Shown here piece after piece: positions 48,389 to 64,000 of a DNA stretch of 64,000 nt. The stretch spans positions 552,794-616,793 of the forward strand of contig CAWFJJ010000025.1 of the NCBI GenBank assembly GCA_963816185.1, given 5' to 3'. The position numbers and the translations under genes are program-made. Position 1 is the stretch's first letter; the number at the start of each line of letters is the position of its first letter. A model generated the notes under the pieces. It worked only from the letters and a program-made list of their open reading frames with translations. It did no database searches and was not told where the DNA came from. Origin of the DNA: Thermoanaerobaculia bacterium. Lineage in GTDB: Bacteria > Acidobacteriota > Thermoanaerobaculia > UBA5066.

Positions 48389-50711
48389 ATGGTGTTGAGG
48401 CGCTTCCGCCGGGATGACGACCGGCGCCGCGAGCCGCCGCTCGCTTTCGCCGCGCTCGTCTTGGGCGCCGTCGCCGCCTCCCGGTTCTTCGCGCTCGCGC
48501 ATTCGCCGGGCGAGATCGACGAGGCGATCTTCGCGGGCGCCGTGACGCATTTCGACCTGTTCGACCTGTCGCCGCAGGCGCCCGGCTTTCCCGTGTGGAT
48601 CCTGCTCGGCCGGGCCCTGCTGCCGTTGTGCGTCACGCCGTTCAACGCGCTCGCGACGGCGTCCACGGTGCTCGCCGCCTGCAGCGTTCCCGCCCTTTAC
48701 GTCTGGGGCCGGCGCGTCGTCGGCGGGTGGGCCGCGCTCGCGGGCGTCGTCTTCGCGTTCGCGCTTCCCGTCGTCTGGGTGAACGGGGGGCGCGCGTTCT
48801 CCGACACGCCCGCCACGGCTCTCTTCCTCGGCGCGCTCGCGTGTCTCGGGACCGCCGAGGAGAGGCGCTCGCCGAACCAGACGCGCTGGCGCGACCTGGT
48901 GGCCGCCCGGCGCGCCCGGCTTCTCGGGCTCGCGGCGGGGCTCCTCGCGGCCGCGGGCTGCGGCGATTCGGCCGCATCTCCTTCTCGCCTTCTTCCCGAT
49001 CCTCCTCCTCTCCATGTTGCGGCTCATGGTCCGGCACGACCGGGCCGACGCGGCTTGGACGTTCGGCCTGTCCGCTCTTGCCGGCACCTCCGCGTGGTTC
49101 GTCTGGCTGTTCGCGCAGGCGGGCGGCGCGCCCGGGCTCTTCGCGTCGCTGTCCGAGCGCGCCGAATTTCGCACGCACGCGTTCGCGACCGGCACCGTCG
49201 GGTCACTCCTCGACTCCTTCCTCGTGCGGGACTTTCTCACGTGGCGGCGGGCGCTGGTCGTCCTCGCGGTCGCGGCCACGGGCCTCCTCGCCCTCGCCAT
49301 CCGCAAACGCCGAGGCTTTCTCGATCTCGTCCTCGTCCTCGCCCCGACGTTCTTCTCGCTGTGGTTCCTCCACAGCCGCGCGATGTCCCGCTACTCCGTG
49401 CCGTTCGTCCTCGTCCTCGGCCTCGCGGTGGGGGCGGGGCTCGAGGCGCTCCTCCGGCGCGGCTTCCTCGCGTTCGGCGCGGCCGGTCTCGCCGGGCTCT
49501 TCCTGGCTCGCGAGGCCTGGCCCGAGGTGCGCGCGAGCGCACGGGAGGAGACTCCGCCCATCGCCGCCCTGCGCGACCTCGAACGCTGGGTGCATCCCGG
49601 CCGCGAGACGATCGTGGCCGATCCGGACTTTCAAGCCTTCCTCAGGACCGAGCGTTGGGAAGGGCGCCTCGTCGTGTGGGGCTACCTGGATCACGAGCTC
49701 GTGCAGGCGCCGCGCCAGATGAACAAGCGCCTCGTGCGCCTTGCCGACTTCACGGACGAAACCGGCCCGCCGACCCTCGTCGATCCTCTTTGGCGCTCTT
49801 ATGAGAGAAGCGGACGGGTGGCGGAGGCGCTCGGGAACCGTCGGCTTCTCCACGTCGCCGTGCGCGATCCGGCGCCGCCGCTCTTCGGCGTGGGGTTCGG
49901 CGTGAGGGAGTCGATACCAGGCAAGCCTTCGTTTCGCTGGGCAGGACCCGTCGCGCATCTGTACGTGCCGGCAGATCAAGGCCCGCTCTGCGCCGTGCTG
50001 TCGGGCGAGCGGCCCGAGGACGCCGGCGAGACGACGCTGCGCGTGACGGAAGCGGGCTCGGGACGCCTGCTCCTCGAGCGCCGGATCGCGCCGGGTCCGT
50101 TCGACCTTGCGATCGTGCCTCGCGCGATCTTCGGGCCGATGCCGGGGCCCTCGGAATACGTGCTGTCCTGCGACCGGTCGAAGGACTTGCCTCCGCTCGA
50201 GGGCGCGAAGCGGCCGGCGAAAGGCTGTTTCACGATTCGCGAGGCGACGTACGCCTACGCGCCGGAAGCGCTCTGGACGAAGCAGGAGCCTCGGCTCGTG
50301 GCCGACCTCGGCGCGCCCGACGACGGCCGCTTCGACCCGGAAGGCTTCTTCTCACGCGAGAAAAGCGCGGACACGGGCCTCGATCTCCGTTGGACGACGA
50401 ACACCGCTTCGATCGTCTTCTCTCCCGTTCCGGGCTTCACCCCGTCGCGGCTCATCCTGCGCGCGCGCTCCGTCGCGTCGCCCGTCGACGTCGACGTGTC
50501 GGTCGGTGAGGTGCCGGCCGGCTCTGTCCGCGTGGATGTGGGCCTTGCGGAAGTGTCGCTCCCGCTGTCGTCCGACGCCCAGCGTGCTCTCGCGGGCCCC
50601 GAGCCCGTCCGGCTTTGGTTCCACACGCCGACGACCGTTCCGAAGGACGCCGGAAAGGGAGACGACACCCGGGCCCTCGGGATCGGCGTCGACCGGGTCT
50701 CGCTGGAGTAG
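48389..50711 (+). CDS. Polytopic membrane protein, GT-C glycosyltransferase-like; frameshift near 48963
   Basis: EIDE..F, PQAPGFPVW, AFSDTPA and many TM segments. The frame continues as IRPHLLLAFF into ORF 49014..50711. Confidence 0.65.
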
Positions 50712-50765
50712 ACGGAACGTGTGCTCGCTGACGTGGAGCGGTGGTTCGATCACTTCGCAGGCTTC

Positions 50766-51152
50766 TCAGGCGATGACGGCTCCCCGCTCGAGAAGGAGCT
50801 CACGGAGAATAGACCGATGACAGCGTTCCTCGGAAGGACAGTAGCAGCCTACCGAGAACGACGTGGCGTGAGAGAGAGCGGCGAGAAGATCCAGGACATG
50901 CGCTTTGTCCGGCCGCTTCATCTCGGTGCGATAGCGTCTGCTGAAGGCCCGCCATCGGACAGCGTCGTCTGCCGCCCGGCCCGCCTTGACGAGCTCCTCG
51001 CTGGGCGCCACCTCGGGAAGCCAGATGTCGTAGAAATCGCGGGACGCGAAGTCGGCCTTCGGGACTCCGCGCGGCGGGCGTCGAACCGTTCCGATCCGAA
51101 GGCCCTCGCCCGGGAGCCTTGAACTTCCTAGTCTGACGACGCGAATGGACAT
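50766..51152 (-). CDS. DUF488/YeaO family protein (probable cassette-derived gene)
   Basis: RIGTVRRPPRGVPK, WLPEVAPS, F.RRYRTEM, CYC...RCHRSIL. Confidence 0.85.
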   Translation of the reverse strand: MSIRVVRLGSSRLPGEGLRIGTVRRPPRGVPKADFASRDFYDIWLPEVAPSEELVKAGRAADDAVRWRAFSRRYRTEMKRPDKAHVLDLLAALSHATSFSVGCYCPSEERCHRSILRELLLERGAVIA

Positions 51153-51194
51153 TCGTATCTCCTGGGGCGGTCTTCCGTGACCGACTCTGAGCAC

Positions 51195-51254
51195 GCCTGA
51201 CGATAGCGACCTCGACGGCGGGCGCACGCGATCCCGCTGCATGGGGTGTCAGGG
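51195..51254 (-). other. Degenerate attC site
   Basis: gcctgacgatagc...cccgctgca...gtcaggg aligns along its length with the 60-bp attC consensus of this array. The upstream ORF stop (51249-51251) lies inside its core site. Confidence 0.6.
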
Positions 51255-51638
51255 AGGACACGCCTTTTCGAATTGCACACGCAGACCCTGAAACGACAGG
51301 CTGTACGAGTAGCCGCGTGACTCGTCGCGCCGCCAGGAAACGACTCTGTCGCGCCACCCTGGATGTGCCCGCAGGGTACGGTCATAAGCGTTTCTGGCTC
51401 GTGACGACTCCCTGGGGTAAAGGCAATAACAGCTGTCTGCGGGCGCCAGATGACGCTTGACGCAGTCCGCGACTCTATCCCTTACCGCGTCGATCGCGGT
51501 CTTCAGCACCGCCGCATCGTGAACGTCGGCAGGCCTCTCCAGTGTGATCGGCGGGGACGGGGTTGCCCCAGCACCGTGCGCCGGTGATCCCGCCGAGCCG
51601 GTTGACAACAGCAGTACGGTGTAGAGAAGTGGGCTCAT
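51249..51638 (-). CDS. Hypothetical exported protein (gene cassette)
   Basis: 129-aa ORF with a hydrophobic N-terminus and several Cys; it ends inside an attC-like site. Confidence 0.6.
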   Translation of the reverse strand: MSPLLYTVLLLSTGSAGSPAHGAGATPSPPITLERPADVHDAAVLKTAIDAVRDRVADCVKRHLAPADSCYCLYPRESSRARNAYDRTLRAHPGWRDRVVSWRRDESRGYSYSLSFQGLRVQFEKACPP

Positions 51639-51705
51639 GCGTGCCGATCCTCAAGCAGCGAGAGCAGCGGATGCGATGGCGACAATGGAACCTATGGGTC
51701 CCATA

Positions 51706-52242
51706 CTATCCTCCATCTCCGAGTGTTACAGAGGCACGTTTCGTCCACTGCCACAGGCCGGCGGTCACTGCGGCTGGCAAGCGGAAGCCGATCTGCCTCG
51801 CCACCAACACGATCTGTCCGCGGTGATGGCCCTCGTGAGCGACGAAGTACGTTAGCAGGTGGCCGACGTCCAGCGGCAGATTCCTCCACACGTAAGCCGG
51901 GCTGGCTGGAACCTTTCCGCCGCAGCCACACCCGAGCCGCAAGAGGTCTTCGATGCCCCGGCTACTCCTGTTCAGTGCCGCGACCAGCTGGCGGCGGCTC
52001 ACCTTCCGGCGGTCGACGGCGGACGGAACCGGGATGCCATGGGGCCGGCCGAGGGTCTTGAGCCACATGCAGCGGGCGTTGTGGAGGTGGCCGGCGAGCA
52101 TGCGAATCGTCTTCCGCGGGGCTCCGGGCACCGGGGCCTCCCATACCGCGGTGGGGACGTGCCTGACGAGAAAGACAGTGACCTGATGATTGGTCCGCCA
52201 AGCCGCCAAGATGGTCTCGGTGAGATCGCGAAGGGCGGGCAT
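51706..52242 (-). CDS. DinB family protein (gene cassette)
   Basis: GHLHNARCMW, YFVAHEGHHRGQI. RBS AGGAG upstream of the ATG at 52242. Confidence 0.85.
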   Translation of the reverse strand: MPALRDLTETILAAWRTNHQVTVFLVRHVPTAVWEAPVPGAPRKTIRMLAGHLHNARCMWLKTLGRPHGIPVPSAVDRRKVSRRQLVAALNRSSRGIEDLLRLGCGCGGKVPASPAYVWRNLPLDVGHLLTYFVAHEGHHRGQIVLVARQIGFRLPAAVTAGLWQWTKRASVTLGDGG

Positions 52243-52278
52243 TTCGGGTCTCTCCTGATATTTCGCGCTGACGCGTAA

Positions 52279-52332
52279 CGCTAACAAGGTCGGCAGCAAG
52301 CGTTGCGAGTCCGCTGCAGCGCGTCGTTAGGC
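52279..52332 (-). other. attC site
   Basis: Minus strand GCCTAAC-gacgcgctgcagcggactcgc...-GTTAGCG, directly downstream of the CoA-binding gene. Confidence 0.8.
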
Positions 52333-52343
52333 AGCGGCCCAAC

Positions 52344-52811
52344 CTACCCGGGGACGCGACGCCAGAGACGAAGCCACCAACGGAAAAGCCGGTGACCAGG
52401 ATCCACGGGCTGGCAATACATGAGTGGGCAACCACCCACGATGGGCTCGATGCCGTGCTGCCGACATGCTTCGAGTGCCTCGGACGACACACTGCCAGCC
52501 CCGAAAGACCTGTGGAACCAGATGCGGCGAATGCCCCGGGCCGCCGCCTCTCGCACGATGGACGCCCCGACAGACGGATGGGTGGCGACAAGGACGCCGT
52601 GCAGTTCGCCCGGGACGGCTGAAAGGGTGGGATAAGCGCGCGCTCCTTCGAGCTCGGACGCGTTGGGATTGACGGGAATGGCTTCATGCCCGCATTGCTG
52701 GAGGCGACGAAAGATGGCGTTGGCGGGCGCGCGACCCGTACGCGAGACACCAGCGACGACGATGCGTTTACCGGCGAGAAAATCGGCGACGGACGGGGGA
52801 AGAGGCTGCAT
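52344..52811 (-). CDS. CoA-binding protein (YccU-like; gene cassette)
   Basis: KRIVVAGVSR, IPVNP, AYPTL, RIWF..G, GGCPLM. Confidence 0.88.
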   Translation of the reverse strand: MQPLPPSVADFLAGKRIVVAGVSRTGRAPANAIFRRLQQCGHEAIPVNPNASELEGARAYPTLSAVPGELHGVLVATHPSVGASIVREAAARGIRRIWFHRSFGAGSVSSEALEACRQHGIEPIVGGCPLMYCQPVDPGHRLFRWWLRLWRRVPG

Positions 52812-52836
52812 GGATGCGATGCCGCACTTATCGGCC

Positions 52837-52916
52837 GCCTAACGATATCGCGCTCAGCGGTGAGAAGGAAGGAGCCCGGTGGCTGACGCCGAGTCCGCTG
52901 CAATAACGGGTTAGGC
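52837..52916 (-). other. attC site (intact, 80 bp)
   Basis: Plus strand gcctaac gatatcgc gctcagcgg...ccgctgca...gttaggc, with complementary core sites and L boxes. Confidence 0.85.
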
Positions 52917-52931
52917 GACGGTTCTCGAACC

Positions 52932-53612
52932 TCACGCGAGGAGTCTGGGGCCGAGCCCCTGAACGACGACGTCGCCGACAAAGTGGCAAATGATCGCGTA
53001 CGGAAGACCCCAGCGCCAGAACAGCCAGCCGAAGAGCAGGCCTCCGGCACCGTTAAGAAGCAGTACCGCGCCGATCAAGGTTGTGGTCGGATGCGCTACC
53101 GCCAGCCAAGCTGGCAGATGAACTAACGCGAAAAGCAACGCGGAGGTGAGGAGGGATAGGAACATGGCTCGCGCTGAAGTGGGACTTAGCCAATTGACCA
53201 ACCAAGCGATGACACTCATTGCAAAAAGGCGAAAGACAACCTCTTCGAGAATCGACGATTCGAAGGCCAACGCCAACGGGCGCCATGCTGGCTCAGTGAG
53301 ACGATTCAGGAAGCGAGCATGAAGCGCTGGCTCACGCTGGGCCAGGAACGCGAGAGCGGCCAAGAGCACGAACCCGAGTGCGCCACCGGCCACGGCAGAG
53401 AGGAGGGCTAAGCGGCCTCGCTGTCGTCCTAGATGCGCCGGAACGCGGCGGCAGCGCGACGCAGCGGAGAAGCCCGAGATCACGAAGAAAGCGCCCGCGA
53501 CGGAGCCGACCGCTACGTAAATCACGTTGGCCGGCTGTGGCACCGCCAGACAGAGCGCGAGCACGAATGCCAGCCAGGTGCCGAGGAGTGTGACGATGGG
53601 TTCTCTGTCCAC
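52932..53612 (-). CDS. CPBP (CAAX protease-like/Abi) intramembrane metalloprotease (gene cassette)
   Basis: EEVVFR, LFALVH, GWLFWRWGL..AIICH. GTG start at 53612 preferred because the 53666 start lies in an IS remnant. Confidence 0.85.
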   Translation of the reverse strand: MDREPIVTLLGTWLAFVLALCLAVPQPANVIYVAVGSVAGAFFVISGFSAASRCRRVPAHLGRQRGRLALLSAVAGGALGFVLLAALAFLAQREPALHARFLNRLTEPAWRPLALAFESSILEEVVFRLFAMSVIAWLVNWLSPTSARAMFLSLLTSALLFALVHLPAWLAVAHPTTTLIGAVLLLNGAGGLLFGWLFWRWGLPYAIICHFVGDVVVQGLGPRLLA

Positions 53613-53646
53613 GCTGCCTGCGAAGTGACTCGTTGCCGGCTCCGCA

Positions 53647-53772
53647 GCCTGAGGATATCGTTTCAATGAAATCGAGAAAAGGGCCGTCCTCGCCGACCAA
53701 GCAAGGGAGGACAGCCCGATGAGGTGCCGACCTCTCTGGAGGGGTTCTCCTCGCTGCGGCGCGTTGTTAGGC
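53647..53772. mobile_element. Degenerate attC containing an internally deleted remnant of the IS1111-type element
   Basis: gcctgag gatatc gtttcaatgaa...gtcctcgccgac / caagcaagggaggacagcccgatg / aggtgccgacctct...ctcg: three pieces of the IS at 55694, joined to the attC half gctgcggcgcgttgttaggc. Confidence 0.8.
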
Positions 53773-53778
53773 AGCAGG

Positions 53779-55183
53779 CGGGTTCAGTCCGGGCACATGG
53801 GTTACAGAACGGTCCAGGCACATGGGTGACACAGGGCAGAGTTCGGGCGGGAGGAGAAACGCCCGATGCCCTGGAAGGAGACGACACCCGTGGCCGAGAG
53901 GATGCAGAGCCTGGTGGATTATCGAAGCGGGCTTTTCACGGTGAGCTTTCTGGCCGAGCGGCACGGCGTGAGCCGCAAGACGCTCTACAAGTGGATCGAG
54001 AGATTCGAGGCGGAAGGTGTGGCAGGGCTCGAGGACCAGATGCGCCGGCCGCACTGGCACCCGAATCAGACCGCTGGGGATGTCGAGTCGGCCATCACCG
54101 AGTTTCGACGCAAACACCCCGACTGGGGCCCGAAGAAGATCGTCCACGTGCTGGCGACGCGCGACCAGGAGACGAGCTGGCCGGCACGAAGCACGGTGGC
54201 GGCGATTCTCAAGAGACACGGGCTCGTGAAGGCGCGGCGCCGCAGACGGCCCGTCGGGCATCCGGGACGTCCGATGACGGTGGCTGAGAAGGCGAATGCG
54301 CTGTGGGCCACGGACTTCAAGGGCGAGTTCCTGACGGGCGACGGGATCTACTGCTACCCGCTGACGGTGAGCGACCTCTATAGCCGATACCTCATCGGGT
54401 GCAGAGGGCTGCTCTCGACGAAGGCGGACGGCGTGAAGAAAAGCTTCGAACGGCTGTTTCGCGAACATGGATTGCCCGATGCGATCCGAAGCGACAACGG
54501 GGTTCCGTTTGCGTCGACGGGCCTGGGGCGGCTCTCGCGCCTCTCGGTGTGGTGGATCAAGCTGGGAATCAGGCCCGAGCTCACGCAGCCGGCCCACCCC
54601 GAGCAGAACGGCTCGCACGAGAGGATGCATCGCACGCTCAAGCGGGCGACGACTCACCCCGTGGGGCGCGACCTCAGAGGCCAGCAGAAACGCTTCGACG
54701 CCTTCCAGCTGGAGTTCAACACCGAGCGGCCCCACGAAAGCATCGGCATGAAACGGCCCGCCGATCTTTACCGTCCTTCACTGCGCACGTTCCCGTCCAA
54801 GCTCGCACCCATCGAGTACCCGGGCCACTTCGAGGTCAGGCGCGTCAGCCGCAACGGCGGGATCCGCTGGAAGACGGGCTGGCTCAGCGTCAGCCACCCC
54901 CTGATCGACGAGTACGTCGGGCTCGAGGAGGTCGACGACGGCATCTGGAACCTGTACTTCGGTTCGCTACTGCTGGGGCGCTTCGACGAGCGCGACAAGA
55001 AACTCTATGCAGCCTTTTATGAACACCGGCCCTGGCACCGCGGCGGCCGCACTAGGCGCGGGGCTGAGAGCTCTACGCAAGAAGATTTCCACGATCTCCA
55101 CAGCACGACGACGACGAGGTAACTGTTGATAAGTGTTACCCATGTGCCTGGACTAAAGTGTTACCTATGTGCCCGACCGTTCA
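53779..55183 (+). mobile_element. IS481-family insertion sequence, copy 1
   Basis: Both ends carry two copies of ggcacat(g/a)ggt.aca in inverted orientation (53787-53832; 55135-55183). Exact termini are uncertain by a few bp. Confidence 0.85.
53866..55122 (+). CDS. IS481-family DDE transposase
   Basis: HTH GVSRKTLYKW; rve core WATDFKG, RSDNG, QNGSHERMHRTLK, FNTERPHE. Confidence 0.92.
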   Translation: MPWKETTPVAERMQSLVDYRSGLFTVSFLAERHGVSRKTLYKWIERFEAEGVAGLEDQMRRPHWHPNQTAGDVESAITEFRRKHPDWGPKKIVHVLATRDQETSWPARSTVAAILKRHGLVKARRRRRPVGHPGRPMTVAEKANALWATDFKGEFLTGDGIYCYPLTVSDLYSRYLIGCRGLLSTKADGVKKSFERLFREHGLPDAIRSDNGVPFASTGLGRLSRLSVWWIKLGIRPELTQPAHPEQNGSHERMHRTLKRATTHPVGRDLRGQQKRFDAFQLEFNTERPHESIGMKRPADLYRPSLRTFPSKLAPIEYPGHFEVRRVSRNGGIRWKTGWLSVSHPLIDEYVGLEEVDDGIWNLYFGSLLLGRFDERDKKLYAAFYEHRPWHRGGRTRRGAESSTQEDFHDLHSTTTTR

Positions 55184-55811
55184 CTGCGGTTCAGGCGAGC
55201 TCTTGCCCACGCTTGGCGACGCGCTTCCGTACGGGCTGCGCTTCGATCAGCCACAGGCTGCCCGTGGGTACGCTGACCTGCGACACGGAATTCGCGCCAG
55301 TACTCGTGCATGACGTGCCGAGCTCTGCTTGAGAAATGGGATAGCCGGTTGCGGCGAGTCTCCTTCGCTCAGTTTTGTACAGGCGATGCCATCCACCAGA
55401 ACGCGGTAGCCCGTAGGCGTGCGGAGTGCCGCGTGGCTTATATCAGACGGGGCGACGCCCCGCGTTTGTGACCCGAAGAAGGCCGGTGAGACCCATCCGC
55501 GCCGGACCGGCCGCTGGCAGGACTCTCCATGACCGAGTTGGCGCGGCGACGACCGCCTGCGGGCGATCACGACGGCAGTCGAGGATGGAGAGAATGACCC
55601 CGGACTGCCCGAACAAGAGGCCCGCGACGACGGTCAGGATCGGTGAGGATCGAGGCCATGTACACGCACCTCGTTGCCGGGCCTAACGATATCGTTTCAA
55701 TGAAGAGGAGAAAAGGGCTGTCCTCGCCGACGTGGTCACCGAAGAATCGGGCCACAACGATTAACGGGGTCAACCTCCGAGGAGGTGCCCCAAGCAAGGG
55801 AGGACAGCCCG

Positions 55812-56915
55812 ATGAAATCTTATGTGGGACTGGACGTTCACAGCAAGTCGAGCGTTTTCATGATTCAGAACGAGCGGGGAGAGGAGCTGGGACGAGGCGA
55901 GGTGCCGACCTCTGTGGAAGGGTTTTCCTCGTTGCGGCTACGTTTCAAGCTTCGCGCCTCGACGCTGGTGGCTCTCGAATCGGGGACGATGGCGTTTTTT
56001 GCGGCGCGAAAGCTCAGTGAGCTGGGGCTTTCGCCCGTCGTGGTGGATGCGCGAGAGGTCAGGATCAAAGCCCATCGGCCCCGGCAGAAAAGCGACACGA
56101 GAGACGCCGTTGAACTGTGCGAAGGCCTGCGGCGTGGAATCTACCGGTCGATCGTGCATGTGCCGCCGGAGAAGATCGAGCACCTTAGAAATACCCTCTC
56201 GAGGCGCCGCCATTTCGTGCGTCTCGGGACGGCGCAGATCAACGCGGCGAAAAAGATGCTCCGGAGCGCGGGGCTCTCCGAGCTCAGCCGCCAGCATCTC
56301 GGGACCCTTCGCGCGTGGCAGCGCCTTCTTGGGGCCCTGGTTCCACATCCGCAGGTAAGGAGCTACGTCGAGCTTCACCACCGCGCCTGGCAGACTGCCC
56401 TCGAGCAGAAGAACGCGTGCGAGAAGAGCCTCGAAAGCCAGCACGCCGCCTTCGGCGAAGACCTCGAGAGACTCAAAACCGTTCCAGGAGTCGGGGAGAT
56501 CGTGGCGCTGACGGCAATCGCTGTCTTCTCAGACGCCACGCGCTTTCCGACCGCCAAGCATGCGGCGAGCTACGCGGGGCTCGTCCCGCAAACCTACCAG
56601 TCGGGCGAAACGAACCGCCAGGGCCACATCACCAGGACGGGTTCGCCGGAGCTGCGGGCCATGCTCGTGCAGGCGGCTCACACGGCCAGGCGGCAAAGCA
56701 GCCCACTGAATCCGTTTCTGAGAACTCTCACGTTGCGCCTGGGGACACGCCGCGCTGTCACGGCCGTGGCGCATCGTCTCTGTCGGGTTCTTTACGCGAT
56801 GCTTCGAGACAAGACGAGCTTTGATCGATCGATGCTGAAAGCCCACGAGCCGCGCACGGCGGTAAAGGATGCCCGGATCTATCGACTGAAACCTCAAGCG
56901 GCAAAGAGCCGCTGA
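55812..56915 (+). CDS. IS110-family DEDD transposase/recombinase
   Basis: YVGLDVH, ALES, KSDTRDA, VPGVGEIVA, YAGLVPQTYQSG. GGAGG RBS before the ATG at 55812. Confidence 0.95.
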   Translation: MKSYVGLDVHSKSSVFMIQNERGEELGRGEVPTSVEGFSSLRLRFKLRASTLVALESGTMAFFAARKLSELGLSPVVVDAREVRIKAHRPRQKSDTRDAVELCEGLRRGIYRSIVHVPPEKIEHLRNTLSRRRHFVRLGTAQINAAKKMLRSAGLSELSRQHLGTLRAWQRLLGALVPHPQVRSYVELHHRAWQTALEQKNACEKSLESQHAAFGEDLERLKTVPGVGEIVALTAIAVFSDATRFPTAKHAASYAGLVPQTYQSGETNRQGHITRTGSPELRAMLVQAAHTARRQSSPLNPFLRTLTLRLGTRRAVTAVAHRLCRVLYAMLRDKTSFDRSMLKAHEPRTAVKDARIYRLKPQAAKSR

Positions 56916-57112
56916 AGACGAAGAAAGGAAAAGCACGCCGCAAATCTTGCCGAGAATCGGGTGGATGACCCTGCTGCTGAGCATTGGGCCGCAGAGCCCG
57001 GGATATCGTTTGGGGCGCCATCCGCTGAAGTGATACGTGGGGCTCTGACCCCGAATGGACGAGTGGCCGGCTGTTTCGTGCGGCGCAAGCAAGACATTAT
57101 TCAGCGAGGGGC
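56916..57112 (+). ncRNA. Putative bridge/seek RNA of IS1111-type copy 1
   Basis: Non-coding region 3' of tnp. Predicted internal loop carries GCTGAGC (56976-56982) and GATATCGTT (57002-57010), both matching the attC target. Limits are inferred. Confidence 0.6.
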
Positions 57113-57174
57113 TTGACAGGAATCTTCATGGGCAAGCTCAGCGGCGAGCGCAGCGAGTCCGCTGCAGCGCGTTG

Positions 57175-57405
57175 TTAGGCAGCAGGGACCGCGTGACCGA
57201 GTGCGCGCTGAACCTGGGCAGGAAGAGTGATGGCCCTGAAGAGGTTCTTCGGATAGACGTAGTCCTCGCCCGACTCGTCGACAACGCGCAGGTGGTCCGC
57301 GGGCCCGTGTGCCGGCGCACCGAGCGTGCGATAGACCTTACCGACCTCGAGCGACGCCGCATAGCCCGCCGAGTTGACGCAGATGACCCACCGACGCGCC
57401 GGCAC
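57175..57405 (-). CDS. Small conserved hypothetical protein, putative immunity/antitoxin (cassette gene 2)
   Basis: VICVNSAGYAASLEVGKVY..LRVVDESGEDYVYP. Its stop TAA is inside the attC core GCCTAAC. Start uncertain (57405 or 57465). Confidence 0.7.
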   Translation of the reverse strand: MPARRWVICVNSAGYAASLEVGKVYRTLGAPAHGPADHLRVVDESGEDYVYPKNLFRAITLPAQVQRALGHAVPAA

Positions 57406-57409
57406 CGCG

Positions 57410-57643
57410 CTACGGGAAGTACCGCTTGACCTTGAGTTCCTTGCGCCCGATGCCGCTCGCTTCATACCAGTGAATCTCCGCGCGATAGGTTAGACCATCG
57501 GCGGCGCGGACGAAAGCGAAGCCCTTCCGCTTAAGCCAGCGCCCCGCACCGTAAGCCCGACGGAGCCGAGCCACCTCACGAATGGCCGCGCCGCGCGCGA
57601 TGGTCTCGATGCCGGTGATCGGAGAGAGAAGCTCGAAATCCAA
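57410..57643 (-). CDS. Small basic hypothetical protein, putative toxin (cassette gene 1)
   Basis: IETIARG..IRE..RL...YG.GRW.KRKG...AEIHWYEASGIGRKELKVK; TTG start. Confidence 0.72.
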   Translation of the reverse strand: MDFELLSPITGIETIARGAAIREVARLRRAYGAGRWLKRKGFAFVRAADGLTYRAEIHWYEASGIGRKELKVKRYFP

Positions 57644-57793
57644 CGTGGCAGCGCTTTCTGCTGCCTAACGATATCGTTTCAATGAAGAGGAGAAAAGGGC
57701 TGTCCTCGCCGACGTGGTCACCGAAGAATCGGGCCACAACGATTAACGGGGTCAACCTCCGAGGAGGTGCCCCAAGCAAGGGAGGACAGCCCG

Positions 57794-58897
57794 ATGAAAT
57801 CTTATGTGGGACTGGACGTTCACAGCAAGTCGAGCGTTTTCATGATTCAGAACGAGCGGGGAGAGGAGCTGGGACGAGGCGAGGTGCCGACCTCTGTGGA
57901 AGGGTTTTCCTCGTTGCGGCTACGTTTCAAGCTTCGCGCCTCGACGCTGGTGGCTCTCGAATCGGGGACGATGGCGTTTTTTGCGGCGCGAAAGCTTAGT
58001 GAGCTGGGGCTTTCACCCGTCGTGGTGGATGCGCGAGAGGTCAGGATCAAAGCCCATCGGCCCCGGCAGAAAAGCGACACGAGAGACGCCGTTGAACTGT
58101 GCGAAGGCCTGCGGCGTGGAATCTACCGGTCGATCGTGCATGTGCCGCCGGAGAAGATCGAGCACCTTAGAAATACCCTCTCGAGGCGCCGCCATTTCGT
58201 GCGTCTCGGGACGGCGCAGATCAACGCGGCGAAAAAGATGCTCCGGAGCGCGGGGCTCTCCGAGCTCAGCCGCCAGCATCTCGGGACCCTTCGCGCGTGG
58301 CAGCGCCTTCTTGGGGCCCTGGTTCCACATCCGCAGGTAAGGAGCTACGTCGAGCTTCACCACCGCGCCTGGCAGACTGCCCTCGAGCAGAAGAACGCGT
58401 GCGAGAAGAGCCTCGAAAGCCAGCACGCCGCCTTCGGCGAAGACCTCGAGAGACTCAAAACCGTTCCAGGAGTCGGGGAGATCGTGGCGCTGACGGCAAT
58501 CGCTGTCTTCTCAGACGCCACGCGCTTTCCGACCGCCAAGCATGCGGCGAGCTACGCGGGGCTCGTCCCGCAAACCTACCAGTCGGGCGAAACGAACCGC
58601 CAGGGCCACATCACCAGGACGGGTTCGCCGGAGCTGCGGGCCATGCTCGTGCAGGCGGCTCACACGGCCAGGCGGCAAAGCAGCCCACTGAATCCGTTTC
58701 TGAGAACTCTCACGTTGCGCCTGGGGACACGCCGCGCTGTCACGGCCGTGGCGCATCGTCTCTGTCGGGTTCTTTACGCGATGCTTCGAGACAAGACGAG
58801 CTTTGATCGATCGATGCTGAAAGCCCACGAGCCGCGCACGGCGGTAAAGGATGCCCGGATCTATCGACTGAAACCTCAAGCGGCAAAGAGCCGCTGA
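57794..58897 (+). CDS. IS110-family DEDD transposase/recombinase
   Basis: Protein identical to copy 1. Confidence 0.95.
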   Translation: MKSYVGLDVHSKSSVFMIQNERGEELGRGEVPTSVEGFSSLRLRFKLRASTLVALESGTMAFFAARKLSELGLSPVVVDAREVRIKAHRPRQKSDTRDAVELCEGLRRGIYRSIVHVPPEKIEHLRNTLSRRRHFVRLGTAQINAAKKMLRSAGLSELSRQHLGTLRAWQRLLGALVPHPQVRSYVELHHRAWQTALEQKNACEKSLESQHAAFGEDLERLKTVPGVGEIVALTAIAVFSDATRFPTAKHAASYAGLVPQTYQSGETNRQGHITRTGSPELRAMLVQAAHTARRQSSPLNPFLRTLTLRLGTRRAVTAVAHRLCRVLYAMLRDKTSFDRSMLKAHEPRTAVKDARIYRLKPQAAKSR

Positions 58898-59094
58898 AGA
58901 CGAAGAAAGGAAAAGCACGCCGCAAATCTTGCCGAGAATCGGGTGGATGACCCTGCTGCTGAGCATTGGGCCGCAGAGCCCGGGATATCGTTTGGGGCGC
59001 CATCCGCTGAAGTGATACGTGGGGCTCTGACCCCGAATGGACGAGTGGCCGGCTGTTTCGTGCGGCGCAAGCAAGAAATTATTCAGCGAGGGGC
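58898..59094 (+). ncRNA. Putative bridge/seek RNA of IS1111-type copy 2
   Basis: Same sequence as 56916-57112 except one substitution. Confidence 0.6.
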
Positions 59095-59170
59095 TTGACA
59101 GGAATCTTCATGGGCAAGCTCAGCGGCGAGCGTAGCGAGTCCGCTGCAGCGCGTTGTTAGGCGGCGCTGA

Positions 59171-60515
59171 CGGGTTCAGTCCGGGCACATGGGTTACAGA
59201 ACGGTCCAGGCACATGGGTGACACAGGGCAGAGTTCGGGCGGGAGGAGAAACGCCCGATGCCCTGGAAGGAGACGACACCCGTGGCCGAGAGGATGCAGA
59301 GCCTGGTGGATTATCGAAGCGGGCTTTTCACGGTGAGCTTTCTGGCCGAGCGGCACGGCGTGAGCCGCAAGACGCTCTACAAGTGGATCGAGAGATTCGA
59401 GGCGGAAGGTGTGGCAGGGCTCGAGGACCAGGTGCGCCGGCCGCACTGGCACCCGAATCAGACCGCTGGGGATGTCGAGTCGGCCATCACTGAGTTTCGA
59501 CGCAAACACCCCGACTGGGGCCCGAAGAAGATCGTCCACGTGCTGGCGACGCGCGACCAGGAGACGAGCTGGCCGGCACGAAGCACGGTGGCGGCGATTC
59601 TCAAGAGACACGGGCTCGTGAAGGCGCGGCGCCGCAGACGGCCCGTCGGGCATCCGGGACGTCCGATGACGGTGGCTGAGAAGGCGAATGCGCTGTGGGC
59701 CACGGACTTCAAGGGCGAGTTCCTGACGGGCGACGGGATCTACTGCTACCCGCTGACGGTGAGCGACCTCTATAGCCGATACCTCATCGGGTGCAGAGGG
59801 CTGCTCTCGACGAAGGCGGACGGCGTGAAGAAAAGCTTCGAACGGCTGTTTCGCGAACATGGATTGCCCGATGCGATCCGAAGCGACAACGGGGTTCCGT
59901 TTGCGTCGACGGGCCTGGGGCGGCTCTCGCGCCTCTCGGTGTGGTGGATCAAGCTGGGAATCAGGCCCGAGCTCACGCAGCCGGCCCACCCCGAGCAGAA
60001 CGGCTCGCACGAGAGGATGCATCGCACGCTCAAGCGGGCGACGACTCACCCCGTGGGGCGCGACCTCAGAGGCCAGCAGAAACGCTTCGACGCCTTCCAG
60101 CTGGAGTTCAACACCGAGCGGCCCCACGAAAGCATCGGCATGAAACGGCCCGCCGATCTTTACCGTCCTTCACTGCGCACGTTCCCGTCCAAGCTCGCAC
60201 CCATCGAGTACCCGGGCCACTTCGAGGTCAGGCGCGTCAGCCGCAACGGCGGGATCCGCTGGAAGACGGGCTGGCTCAGCGTCAGCCACCCCCTGATCGA
60301 CGAGTACGTCGGGCTCGAGGAGGTCGACGACGGCATCTGGAACCTGTACTTCGGTTCGCTACTGCTGGGGCGCTTCGACGAGCGCGACAAGAAACTCTAT
60401 GCAGCCTTCTATGAACACCGGCCTTGGCATCGCGGCGGCCGCACTGGGCGCGGGGCTGAGAGCTCTACGCAAGAAGATTTCCACGATCTCCACAGCACGA
60501 CGACGACGAGGTAAC
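59171..60515 (+). mobile_element. IS481-family insertion sequence, copy 2 (right end removed by IS3 insertion)
   Basis: Matches copy 1 from cgggttcagtcc to just after the tnp stop. The right terminal repeats are absent. Confidence 0.85.
59258..60514 (+). CDS. IS481-family DDE transposase
   Basis: Two aa differences from copy 1 (M/V, R/G). Confidence 0.92.
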   Translation: MPWKETTPVAERMQSLVDYRSGLFTVSFLAERHGVSRKTLYKWIERFEAEGVAGLEDQVRRPHWHPNQTAGDVESAITEFRRKHPDWGPKKIVHVLATRDQETSWPARSTVAAILKRHGLVKARRRRRPVGHPGRPMTVAEKANALWATDFKGEFLTGDGIYCYPLTVSDLYSRYLIGCRGLLSTKADGVKKSFERLFREHGLPDAIRSDNGVPFASTGLGRLSRLSVWWIKLGIRPELTQPAHPEQNGSHERMHRTLKRATTHPVGRDLRGQQKRFDAFQLEFNTERPHESIGMKRPADLYRPSLRTFPSKLAPIEYPGHFEVRRVSRNGGIRWKTGWLSVSHPLIDEYVGLEEVDDGIWNLYFGSLLLGRFDERDKKLYAAFYEHRPWHRGGRTGRGAESSTQEDFHDLHSTTTTR

Positions 60516-60545
60516 TGAAACGCCCCGGGTTCTCCGGAGACCTGT

Positions 60546-61777
<1,232 letters not shown>

Positions 61778-61827
61778 GGCTCCATCCTCTCAAGTGTTGG
61801 AGCCTCCGGAAATGCCGGGGCGATTCA

Positions 61828-62602
61828 CCTTAGTTCTTACGGGGCCTACGATGACCTGTTCCGTGCCCTCCAAGACGTTTACGCCCAGGAGATCGAGCGA
61901 ACTGCGACCACGGCTCCGGATGATGCTTCCAGCCGTGATCTAGGGCAACACTTGGCGATTCTTTATGCCCGTCGGGTACTCCCAGATGATGGCGCGTTTC
62001 TGCATCGGTTTTTTGCTCTGGCTTCAGACGCTGTTCGCGCAGATACCATCGCTTTCATCGGCCGGGTACTTCACGCCGAGAAGAATCGGCGATTGCCGGA
62101 TGTTCGAGAGCGATTCGAGGGATTCTGGCGAGAAAGGCTAGCCTCGCTCCGCGGCGCACCTGGGGGCTCGTTGCTGGAACTGGCGGCCTTTGGATCGTGG
62201 CTCGCGGCCGACGCAGTTGATCCCGGAGTAACCGGCCTTCTCCTTCTTGATTCAGCCCGCCTCCGAGGCGGCTTGCCGGTGTCCTACGGTCTTCTAACCC
62301 AGCTGGTGGCCTTTGCTCCGAAGTACCCGGAGATGGCTCTCGATCTACTTGAACAGTTCCTCGATGGCGAAGGTGATTCAGACAAGTTCTCGTGGCATGA
62401 CCGAGAGATTCGCCCGATTCTCGTCGCCGCACGGGACGCTGGAGGGGGTGAAATCAAGCCGCAGTTGACGCGCGTCATCAGCAGACTAGGTGCCCGAGGT
62501 TCGCCGGTTTTCGTTTCCGTGCTGAAGGCAGGCGCCTCGGCGGAGGGAGGCGAGGGATCAAGACACTCGCCTACGCCGCCGCCCGGCGGCGAAGTCCAGT
62601 AG
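61828..62602 (+). pseudogene. 3' remnant of a larger helical protein gene, truncated by the IS3 element
   Basis: About 257 open codons run from the IS end with no start of their own. AT-richer codon usage than the core genes. Confidence 0.6.
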
Positions 62603-62862
62603 TAGTGCCCTTCGTGTCACCCGTTGCGGTCGTACCGGGGGAGGACCTATGGTGCCGCGACCACTCGTGTGAACGGCCTCGCAGACCTCCTACCTTTTCA
62701 GCCTCTGCGCGACCGCGATATCACGCGCCGTGGTGGAGCTGAGTCGCCCGACCGCGCACCGAATCCTTGGTGCGGAGCACTCTCGGCGTCGCTGACCGTT
62801 CGCGGATTGAACGCAAGCCGAGCCGGTACATACTGACGTCGGAAACGAGGAGGAGGACCGCC

Positions 62863-63445
62863 ATGTCAAATACGATCCTGATGCTGGTGGGCGACTTCGT
62901 GGAGGACTACGAGGTGATGGTGCCGTTCCAGGCGCTCCAGATGGTGGGTCACACCGTCCACGCCGTCTGCCCGGGGAAGAAGGCGGGCGAGAAGGTGCGG
63001 ACGGCGGTCCACGACTTCGAGGGGGACCAGACCTACAGCGAGAAGCCGGGCCACAACTTCGCCCTCAACTTCTCCTTTGCGACGTGAAGGAGGCTGGATA
63101 CGACGCGCTCGTGATCCCGGGGGGGCGCGCGCCGGAGTACCTGCGGCTGAATCCCCGCGTCCTCGAGATCGTCCGGCACTTCATGACGAGGGAAAGCCGG
63201 TCGCGGCGATCTGCCACGGCGCGCAGATTCTCGCGGCGGCCGGGGTGCTCGAAGGGAGGAAGTGCTCCGCCTATCCGGCGGTCGGCCCGGAGGTGACGCG
63301 GGCCGGGGGCAACTATGCCGAGATCGCTGTGGATCAGGCCGTGACGGAAGGGAACCTTGTCACGGCGCCCGCGTGGCCGGCGCACCCCGTCTGGCTGTCG
63401 CAGTTCACGAAGCTCCTCGAGTCGCGCGTTCCGGCCCATTCGTGA
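62863..63445 (+). pseudogene. DJ-1/PfpI family protein with two frameshifts (about 63080 and 63187)
   Basis: [17 protein letters not shown] / [16 protein letters not shown] / [22 protein letters not shown] in three successive frames. Strong RBS. The frameshifts may be assembly errors. Confidence 0.85.
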
Positions 63446-63544
63446 GGGGAAGGGCGTGACCCAGATCGCCCGCGCCGTCGGGCTCTCGCGACCGACCGTG
63501 ACCGCATCCTCGCCGCGTAGAGCAGCGAGCGAGTAGCTGCAGCG

Positions 63545-64000
63545 TCAAAGATAACGCTGCCAGTGAGCCCGATGCATCGGGCCGAGGCGAAAGTTCGGAG
63601 GATTTGCCTTGTCAAGCAGTTCCTCCGAGCCCAAGAAACAGTGCCAGTGAAGACTATGCGGGTTGTAGGTAAACACGAGCCAGACGTCCACGAGGTGCTT
63701 TATGCCGATTTCGCCTTCCGCCCGAAGAAAGGCGATGTAGAGGTCCTGGTGACTGACGAGCTGGAAATCAGCCGAGTCCACGACGAGGACGGTTCGTGCC
63801 CCCTGCTTCCGGTAGTCCAGCAGGCGCTCGCGTTTGTGATTGAGAGCCCGCTGCATGGTGGCGAGAAGATCGATCCCGCGTTTGATCTTGGAAGGGCTGG
63901 TCACCGCGACGGAGAATGGGATGCGCAGCTCATCCTGCCGAAGGAGCCAGAATGGGAATGGAACTTCGGCAATGGCGTGCTCGGACCTTCCCGCAGTGGA
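63545..64000 (-). CDS. Hypothetical protein (5' end beyond window)
   Basis: Frame is open from the window edge to the stop at 63545. No family recognised. Confidence 0.55.
   Translation of the reverse strand, partial: STAGRSEHAIAEVPFPFWLLRQDELRIPFSVAVTSPSKIKRGIDLLATMQRALNHKRERLLDYRKQGARTVLVVDSADFQLVSHQDLYIAFLRAEGEIGIKHLVDVWLVFTYNPHSLHWHCFLGSEELLDKANPPNFRLGPMHRAHWQRYL

Follow-up and report, generated by a model that had tools for sequence, protein, structure and literature searches.

An attC-targeting IS1111-type element of Acidobacteriota and the co-variation of its predicted guide RNA with its insertion sites

Insertion sequences of the IS1111 type are distinguished by a longer non-coding region 3' of the transposase gene (tnp), subterminal inverted repeats of 7-17 bp and a transposase (Tnp) of 330-350 aa (PMC11187229, PMC11208160). 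The RNA derived from this 3' non-coding region, termed seekRNA, carries a match to the top strand of the target 5' of a match to the bottom strand and can be reprogrammed (PMC11187229). Among members that target attC sites, seekRNAs were established experimentally for ISKpn4 and ISPst6 and predicted for ISPa25 (Siddiquee 2024; PMC11187229). The seekRNAs of ISKpn4 and ISPst6 are described in the same work as co-purifying with their transposases and as needed for movement (PMC11187229). The known attC targets, read in the sense of the IS and as tabulated in PMC13604230, end in TTGAA to the left of the insertion point and continue to its right with CGAATTGTTAG, the heptamer GTTAG lying 6 nt right of this point. 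A single sentence in PMC3001079 places the known IS1111-attC insertions near the 5' end of attC and in antisense orientation.

Here we document the anatomy and site specificity of an element of this kind, the covariation of the helices in its 3' non-coding region and the co-variation of two guide arms with the flanking DNA, in a 64,000-nt stretch of Acidobacteriota DNA that we call the window. The explanation that we favour, with a probability of about 0.88, is that of an IS1111-type insertion sequence whose DEDD/Ser recombinase is guided by a seekRNA/bridge RNA originating from the 218-nt region downstream of tnp. An earlier, sequence-only reading of the same DNA had proposed an IS110/IS1111-type recombinase with a 3' non-coding RNA holding guides for both sides of attC, and this proposal is borne out by helix covariation and by guide/flank co-variation in close as well as distant relatives.

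The element resembles ISKpn4, ISPst6 and ISPa25 in its DEDD recombinase, in the long non-coding region after tnp and in a predicted guide whose top-strand match lies 5' of the bottom-strand match. Like them, it targets attC antisense to the cassettes at 6 nt from the 7-bp core heptamer. Unlike these three elements, which occupy the 5' (R'') end of attC with the heptamer on the right, it has the heptamer GCCTAAC on its left and occupies the 3' (R') end. The published seekRNA matches overlap in the target, whereas those of the window's lineage abut. The element thus shares attC targeting and antisense orientation with the IS1111-attC group (ISPst6, ISPa21, ISKpn4), and differs from it in the end of attC that is used. 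This comparison draws on the published target descriptions. The features of the locus are collected in Table 1.

Table 1. Features of the attC-inserted element and its surroundings. Positions refer to the 64,000-nt window; the + strand is the sense of the IS and is called 'top'.
Feature	Position	Strand	Remarks
Uninvaded attC, GATATC-GC-GCTCAGC	52837..52916	+	
Decayed, internally deleted remnant in a third attC (site 53647-53772)	53660..53759	+	flank GCCTGAGGATATC
Left part of invaded attC, copy 1	55681..55693	+	GCCTAAC heptamer and GATATC; same flank type in 7/7 left junctions
IS copy 1	55694..57133	+	1440 bp, ends GTTTCAATG...TTCATGGGC
Left subterminal inverted repeat ATGAAGA	55700..55706	+	6 nt from tip; partner TCTTCAT
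Transposase/recombinase gene	55812..56915	+	367 aa
Predicted guide RNA core, about 150 nt	56936..57085	+	closed by CGCCGCA/TGCGGCG (56936-42/57079-85) and GCCG/CGGC (56949-52/57068-71)
Target-binding stem-loop (predicted)	56959..57023	+	P1 56959-64/57018-23; P2 56969-72/57012-15; hairpin 56986-89/56996-99
Arm 1, GCTGCTGAGCATT	56973..56985	+	complementary to + strand right flank, +1 to +12
Arm 2, GGGATATCGTTT	57000..57011	+	same sense as left flank GATATC plus IS left end GTTT; would pair with bottom strand
Second domain, candidate donor-binding loop	57024..57064	+	5' strand 57024-38; hairpin 57039-43/57047-52; 3' strand GAATGGAC 57053-60; GAGT 57061-64
TTGACA (-35-like), right end	57113..57118	+	motif only
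Right subterminal inverted repeat TCTTCAT	57123..57129	+	4 nt from tip
Right part of invaded attC, copy 1	57134..57180	+	AAGCTCAGCGGC ... GTTAGGC
IS copy 2, next attC	57676..59115	+	left attC part 57663-57675, right part 59116-59162
IS copy 2 guide arms	58955-58967 and 58982-58993	+	

As the sequence-only reading had stated, the two IS copies of the window are near-identical and sit at one base of two attC sites opposite to the cassette genes. They differ at 3/1440 positions, and both have GCCTAACGATATC as left flank and AAGCTCAGCGGC as right flank. The boundary of copy 1 is ambiguous by 1 nt because its left flank and its right end both finish in C. The host genome (30 contigs, 94.9% complete) holds six full copies at 99-100% identity, together with one 5' fragment and two decayed remnants. 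All six full copies lie at GATATC^AAGCTCAGC (^ marks the insertion point) inside attC sites, antisense to cassette genes; within this genome the left junctions read CTAA(C/G)GATATC^GTTT in 7/7 cases and the right junctions GGGC^AAGCTCAGCGGC in 6/6. The frames of the full-length copies are open. That the element was recently active, another suggestion of the sequence-only reading, is plausible in view of these six near-identical open-frame copies and of two perfect empty targets still left in the genome. The decayed remnants, about 100-170 bp long, internally deleted and with pieces 82-98% identical, come from a related element and occupy two attC sites (window 53647-53772 and C24:732659-732831 of the same genome); the one in the window has neither right end nor RNA region.

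Uninterrupted GATATC-NN-GCTCAGC occurs four times in the genome, NN being AA twice, CA once and GC once, the last at the uninvaded attC of the window, where the GC in place of AA had been noted correctly. Since two empty sites read AA, the insertion point is fixed and no duplication accompanies insertion. The sites are attC-like in that GCCTAAC and GTTAGGC enclose an imperfect palindrome; they were recognised through a listing of motifs, a strict attC finder having returned nothing. Sites of this type with the target of the element are present on contigs C2, C24, C25 and C29 of the genome. The cassette ORFs with Pfam matches (CoA_binding_2 and Rce1-like) are both encoded on the minus strand, which makes the element antisense to the cassettes; read along the cassettes, the insertion precedes the R' heptamer, at the 3' end of attC, by 6 nt. 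The 94.9%-complete assembly yielded no integron integrase above the TIGR02249 cut-off. Either these are cassette arrays without an integrase or a break in the assembly has removed the integrase gene; the array leads into further insertion sequences and the end of the contig.

The Tnp protein matches the Pfam domains DEDD_Tnp_IS110 (PF01548, residues 5-152, E = 8e-14) and Transposase_20 (PF02371, residues 219-296, E = 6e-24), and scores 226 bits against the NCBIfam model NF033542 'IS110 family RNA-guided transposase' (cut-off 140); by its domain content it would be an RNA-guided recombinase of the IS110 family. Residues D8, E56, D95, D98 and S264-G265 are invariant among five close relatives. 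Over 11 sequences down to 55% identity, D8, D95, D98 and S264 remain invariant, and E56 and G265 are kept in at least 90%. The spacing of D95 and D98, which with D8 and E56 are the candidate D-E-D-D residues, equals the D-x2-D of IS621 D102/D105, a correspondence based on sequence conservation. PDB chains of the ISCro4 and IS621 transposases show similarity to the C-terminal domain. The catalytic serine motif, defined as G--P----SG in PMC11187229, is present as GLVPQTYQSG and aligns with the ISCro4 chain. The hallmarks of IS1111 are found in the longer 3' non-coding region (118 nt before tnp, 218 nt after), the 7-bp subterminal repeats and the lack of duplication; at 367 aa, Tnp is somewhat longer than the 330-350 aa given for the group.

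Homologues of this protein are numerous in metagenomes (1255 proteins at E <= 1e-10 among 8000 scored, several hundred of them 55-62% identical); plasmid-borne homologues (PLSDB) reach an identity of about 32% at most. The element is rare among sampled genomes: of the 301 searched in the class, 3 have Tnp at E <= 1e-60. In the phylum, 6 of 401 genomes contain a match to a 15-nt motif conserved in the RNA; two of the matched loci (L046, L047), as well as an extra locus of the host genome (L057), proved to be unrelated sequence, leaving the element in 4/401. A scan of viral contigs gave no match to the element and a plasmid DNA search with the non-coding region gave none either.

In an Rfam scan of positions 50000-64000 at E <= 1, the non-coding region gave no match, the sole hit being an ALIL pseudoknot located elsewhere, and single-sequence folds were no better than those of shuffled sequences (z = 0.67 and -0.78). 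With single folds uninformative and Rfam silent, relatives were needed. Seven loci on genome contigs, with Tnp 85-95% identical, came from Thermoanaerobaculia/Acidobacteriota MAGs; metagenome contigs provided further close relatives and four at 54-63% identity (L029-L032), and genome searches added L048, L049, L051 and L059. One of these (L051, G225:C169) consists of the RNA region and the right end with only the last ~30 tnp codons, a truncated element whose guide RNA is apparently intact.

A structure of 31 pairs was assessed on a 15-sequence alignment (A3), amounting to 465 cells. Pairing is maintained in 93.3% of these cells and 15/31 pairs have changed on both sides. None of 500 shuffles did as well and sliding the partners by 1-3 columns lowered pairing to 35-47%. 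The G-U pairs, such as those at column pair 41:101 in five sequences and 52:92 in eight, fit the tnp-sense strand only. The check that the sequence-only reading had called for, covariation across homologues with different targets, thus came out in its favour: no shuffle matches the scaffold, and the arms follow the flanks, as detailed below. Helices P1 and P2 of the predicted target-binding stem-loop are 98.8% paired with five doubly changed pairs, and the inner hairpin is 100% paired with two such pairs. The outer closing helices are 81-93% paired over the 15 sequences and weaker in the distant relatives, where the alignment is poor. Variation in the non-coding region gathers in the loops and arms. 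The fold that had been proposed, a stem with two arms around an inner hairpin, is upheld by covariation in the 15 sequences; its outer stem ggatg/catcc is not, the conserved helix being GGGTGG/CCATCC (56959-64/57018-23). The helix gctgaa/ttcagc, thought to close the second domain, does not survive comparison: it is perfect in only 3/10 rows of alignment A1, all from the host genome, and was replaced by CGCCGCA/TGCGGCG and GCCG/CGGC. Pairs CGU/ACG beside the second hairpin, proposed by RNAalifold, were likewise dropped, as they are not kept in L029 or L032.

The two arms framing the inner hairpin match the two sides of the target. Arm 1 can pair with the right flank through 10 Watson-Crick pairs and one wobble, with mismatches at +2 and -1. 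Arm 2 equals the top strand over the left junction GATATC^GTTT at 10/12 positions, its last 4 nt being the first 4 nt of the element; these change jointly from GTTT to GTAT in L030 and L031. GATATC is palindromic, so the window alone fits either strand. In L016 and L019, the flank is GATACC and the arm too reads GATACC (GATACCGTTT), which excludes a minus-strand reading of arm 2. Of the earlier claim on the arms, the match to both sides of the target therefore stands, and the minus-strand reading gatatcgtt(agg) of GATATCGTTT gives way to the + strand sense GATATC^GTTT.

Across relatives, arm 1 changes with the flank: GCTGAGCTT goes with AAGCTCAGC, GCTGAACTC with GAGTTCAGC, GCTGAACGC with GCGTTCAGC and GCTGAGCGC with GCGCTCAGC. 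In the attC-targeting relatives, arm bases TT, TC and GC at +1/+2 correspond to AA, GA and GC in the flank, and G or A at +4 to C or T. The four distant relatives L029-L032 are inserted at unrelated sites, and each has arms that match its own site, over 10 contiguous nt in L029 and L031, 8 in L032 and 7 in L030; in L029 and L031 this stretch of arm 1 spans the empty target across the insertion point. Permutation of 11 distinct guide/site combinations, leaving out L014, whose left end is out of register, and L048, which lacks a left flank, gave for arm 1 a score of 110 with its own flanks, a permuted mean of 80.4 and 0/20000 permutations as good, and for arm 2 a score of 103, a mean of 85.8 and 18/20000, figures that overstate independence because the sequences are related. 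For the seven attC-type rows alone, arm 1 scores 72 vs 65.0 (99/20000); the co-variation of arm 2, which there hangs on one variable position, is not significant (2884/20000).

The guide of the host genome places A opposite A at +2 in 6/6 occupied sites, and the guide of L013 and L024 matches perfectly. A guide tuned to the attC family of its host, as had been suggested, is thus correct only in part: guides match sites, with a +2 mismatch at all six sites here and perfection in these two relatives. Sites with one or two mismatches are found in L018 and L026, and in L028 a GATACC arm accompanies a GATATC flank. The 3' arm of L030 does not match its own left flank (7/12); that flank matches the 3' arm of L031 over 10 contiguous nt. 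The L030 and L031 junctions suggest that two related elements have recombined or that the guide changed once the element was in place. The left end of L014, GATATC-GAGTTCAATG, is one base longer than the others (GATATC-GTTTCAATG), and an extra GAG at L014:2370-2400 equals the first bases of the L014 right flank; this junction may stem from aberrant resolution or from an error of assembly. A core of 2-3 nt right of the insertion point, an idea prompted by L014, was rejected since it predicts junctions that are not observed.

The geometry of the guides differs between lineages. Their matches abut at the insertion point in the window's lineage and overlap by 3 nt in L029-L031, as well as in L032 if its hairpin is taken as a 12-nt palindrome. 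Arm 1 of the window's lineage is one base longer than in L029-L031 and its register relative to the hairpin is shifted by 2 nt. A perfect 16-nt palindrome, GATAACCGCGGTTATC, has the L029 target at its edge, and an inverted repeat surrounds that of L032; targets of palindromic type seem to be frequent in this clade.

The second domain is a candidate for the donor-binding loop. Such a loop would be a multi-branch loop, an arrangement described for many IS1111 members (Durrant et al., PMC11208160). Its hairpin (57039-57052) is invariant and hence uninformative either way. The 3' strand GAATGGAC agrees with the right tip TCATGGGC at 5/8 positions, and its only change, to GAATAGAC in L032, coincides with the only matching change of the tip, TCATAGGC. 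The 4 nt following GAATGGAC agree with the first four of the right flank at 58/84 positions over 21 rows, with a permuted mean of 46.3 and 2/20000 permutations as good; in the six rows of the host genome, 2/4 of these positions are matched. For the 5' strand, pairing with C^GTTTCA is possible at 6/7 positions; the two change jointly in L030 and L031, in a register not kept in L029 and L032. No register for donor guides was consistent across the lineages. Junction-matching extensions in the manner of handshake guides seem to be present in the GUUU that ends arm 2 and in the 4 nt that follow GAAUGGAC.

We infer from the published relatives that RNA would be made from this region, bind the recombinase and direct recombination. 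The RNA would fold into the conserved scaffold, the first internal loop of which would present two guides. The 5' arm would pair with the top strand right of the insertion point (AAGCTCAGCGGC), and the 3' arm with the bottom strand on the left (GATATC) and then over 4 nt into the left end of the element, in handshake-guide fashion. Within the non-coding region itself, no sigma-70-like promoter was detected. In the circularised element, TTGACA of the right end lies 17 nt from TTCAAT of the left end (55696-55701), a putative junction promoter recognised by motif only, which the excised circle would carry. This circle would recombine with attC at GATATC^AAGCTCAGC, 6 bp from the R' heptamer and without duplication, and attC would be split.

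Other explanations can be set against this proposal. Were attC recognised by protein contacts alone, in folded or sequence-specific form, the arm matches would be due to chance or be the relic of a captured target. A 7-nt match between arm and flank is by itself unremarkable and not improbable in about 220 nt, and the folds of minimal free energy that do no better than shuffles and the mismatch at +2 in every occupied site would agree with this idea. Yet the arms vary with the flanks in close and distant relatives on a constant scaffold, the helices carry compensatory changes, and homologous systems are RNA-guided by experiment (PMC11187229, PMC11208160), so that recognition by protein contacts alone is very improbable. 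Even less credit is due to the notion that no RNA gene is present and that the conservation reflects a DNA site acting in cis or the remains of a coding sequence. Minus-strand ORFs of 67-187 aa do overlap it; compensatory and G-U changes nevertheless maintain the helices on the + strand, and the concentration of variation in loops and arms also speaks against this notion.

The main task of the arms might instead be to recognise the DNA flanking an integrated copy when it is excised and forms a circle, target choice being a secondary effect. This would suit the contiguity of arm 2 with the integrated left junction, flank plus 4 nt of the element, at 10/12 in most rows, and the likeness of the 12 nt GAATGGAC+NNNN to the right junction, through both the element end and the flank. 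In the experiments reported by Siddiquee et al., changes to the donor flank were needed besides those to the seekRNA (PMC11187229). Against it, the 10 contiguous nt of arm 1 in L029 and L031 form a stretch present only in the uninterrupted site. Both roles fit the published mechanism, and a mainly excisive function of the arms appears unlikely, though the least far-fetched of these alternatives. Guidance of the recombinase to attC by an RNA encoded downstream of tnp remains the explanation that we retain.

An element guided in this way would share with the IS621 bridge RNA (Durrant 2024, PMC11208160; Hiraizumi 2024, PMC11208158) an internal loop of which one strand pairs with one DNA strand on one side of the crossover and the other with the opposite DNA strand on the other side. 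Handshake-guide extensions matching the partner DNA after exchange, a junction promoter (here a motif only) and a related C-terminal domain with Ser-Gly are further likenesses. Unlike IS621, in which the RNA is described as upstream of the gene, with the guide order reversed and a 2-nt CT core, the present element has its RNA region downstream, shows only a single shared base (C), carries a handshake-like extension of 4 nt and would have its donor loop within a multi-branch loop. The natural retargeting described for ISEc11 and ISXne4 (PMC11187229), close relatives with a common scaffold and different arms and targets, is paralleled here. Unlike that pair, the present lineage offers a finer series, in which single-base guide variants track single-base attC variants (+1, +2, +4, -2).

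The mechanism and the case of attC targeting are already published; the finding is real and leaves the established mechanism unchanged. A literature search found no published attC-targeting element of Acidobacteriota. What is modestly new is the divergent environmental (Acidobacteriota) lineage, the use of the opposite (3', R') attC end and a natural series of guide/target co-variants. The nearest relatives outside the attC lineage (54-63% Tnp identity) occupy unrelated, partly palindromic sites. At somewhat under even odds, this lineage may have acquired attC targeting on its own, separately from the known gammaproteobacterial IS1111-attC group, its guide loop having been reprogrammed naturally in a large uncultured environmental clade. 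The element would then attack the R' arm in flipped orientation with a variant geometry, in which the guides meet at a core of 1 nt and both loops bear handshake-like extensions of 4 nt that spell the two product junctions. If this is true, the co-variants (AA/GA/GC at +1,+2; C/T at +4; T/C at -2) and the tolerated mismatches would form a natural map of guide stringency. The series adds a well-documented instance of natural RNA-guided retargeting, single-base guide changes following attC variants and distant relatives having wholly different guides and sites. Cassette arrays of uncultured soil/sediment Acidobacteriota are invaded at the attC end opposite to that used by the clinical IS1111-attC group, and the affected cassettes should be immobilised by insertion in their attC. 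Guide design for IS1111-type recombinases could draw on the compact scaffold and on its 4-nt extensions, which appear to match the junctions.

Other insertion sequences share this part of the window. Two IS481-like copies (53774-55170 and 59166-60517), with a 418-aa ORF and the domains HTH_32, rve and LZ_Tnp_IS481, each start within a few bases of an attC, just past its GTTAGGC end; the second copy is broken off after about 1350 bp by another insertion sequence. An IS3-family element on the minus strand (60546-61777) carries the ALIL frameshift pseudoknot (61383-61499, minus strand; Rfam RF01497, 95 bits) and adjoins the truncated IS481-like copy, so that the contig end is a nest of insertion sequences.
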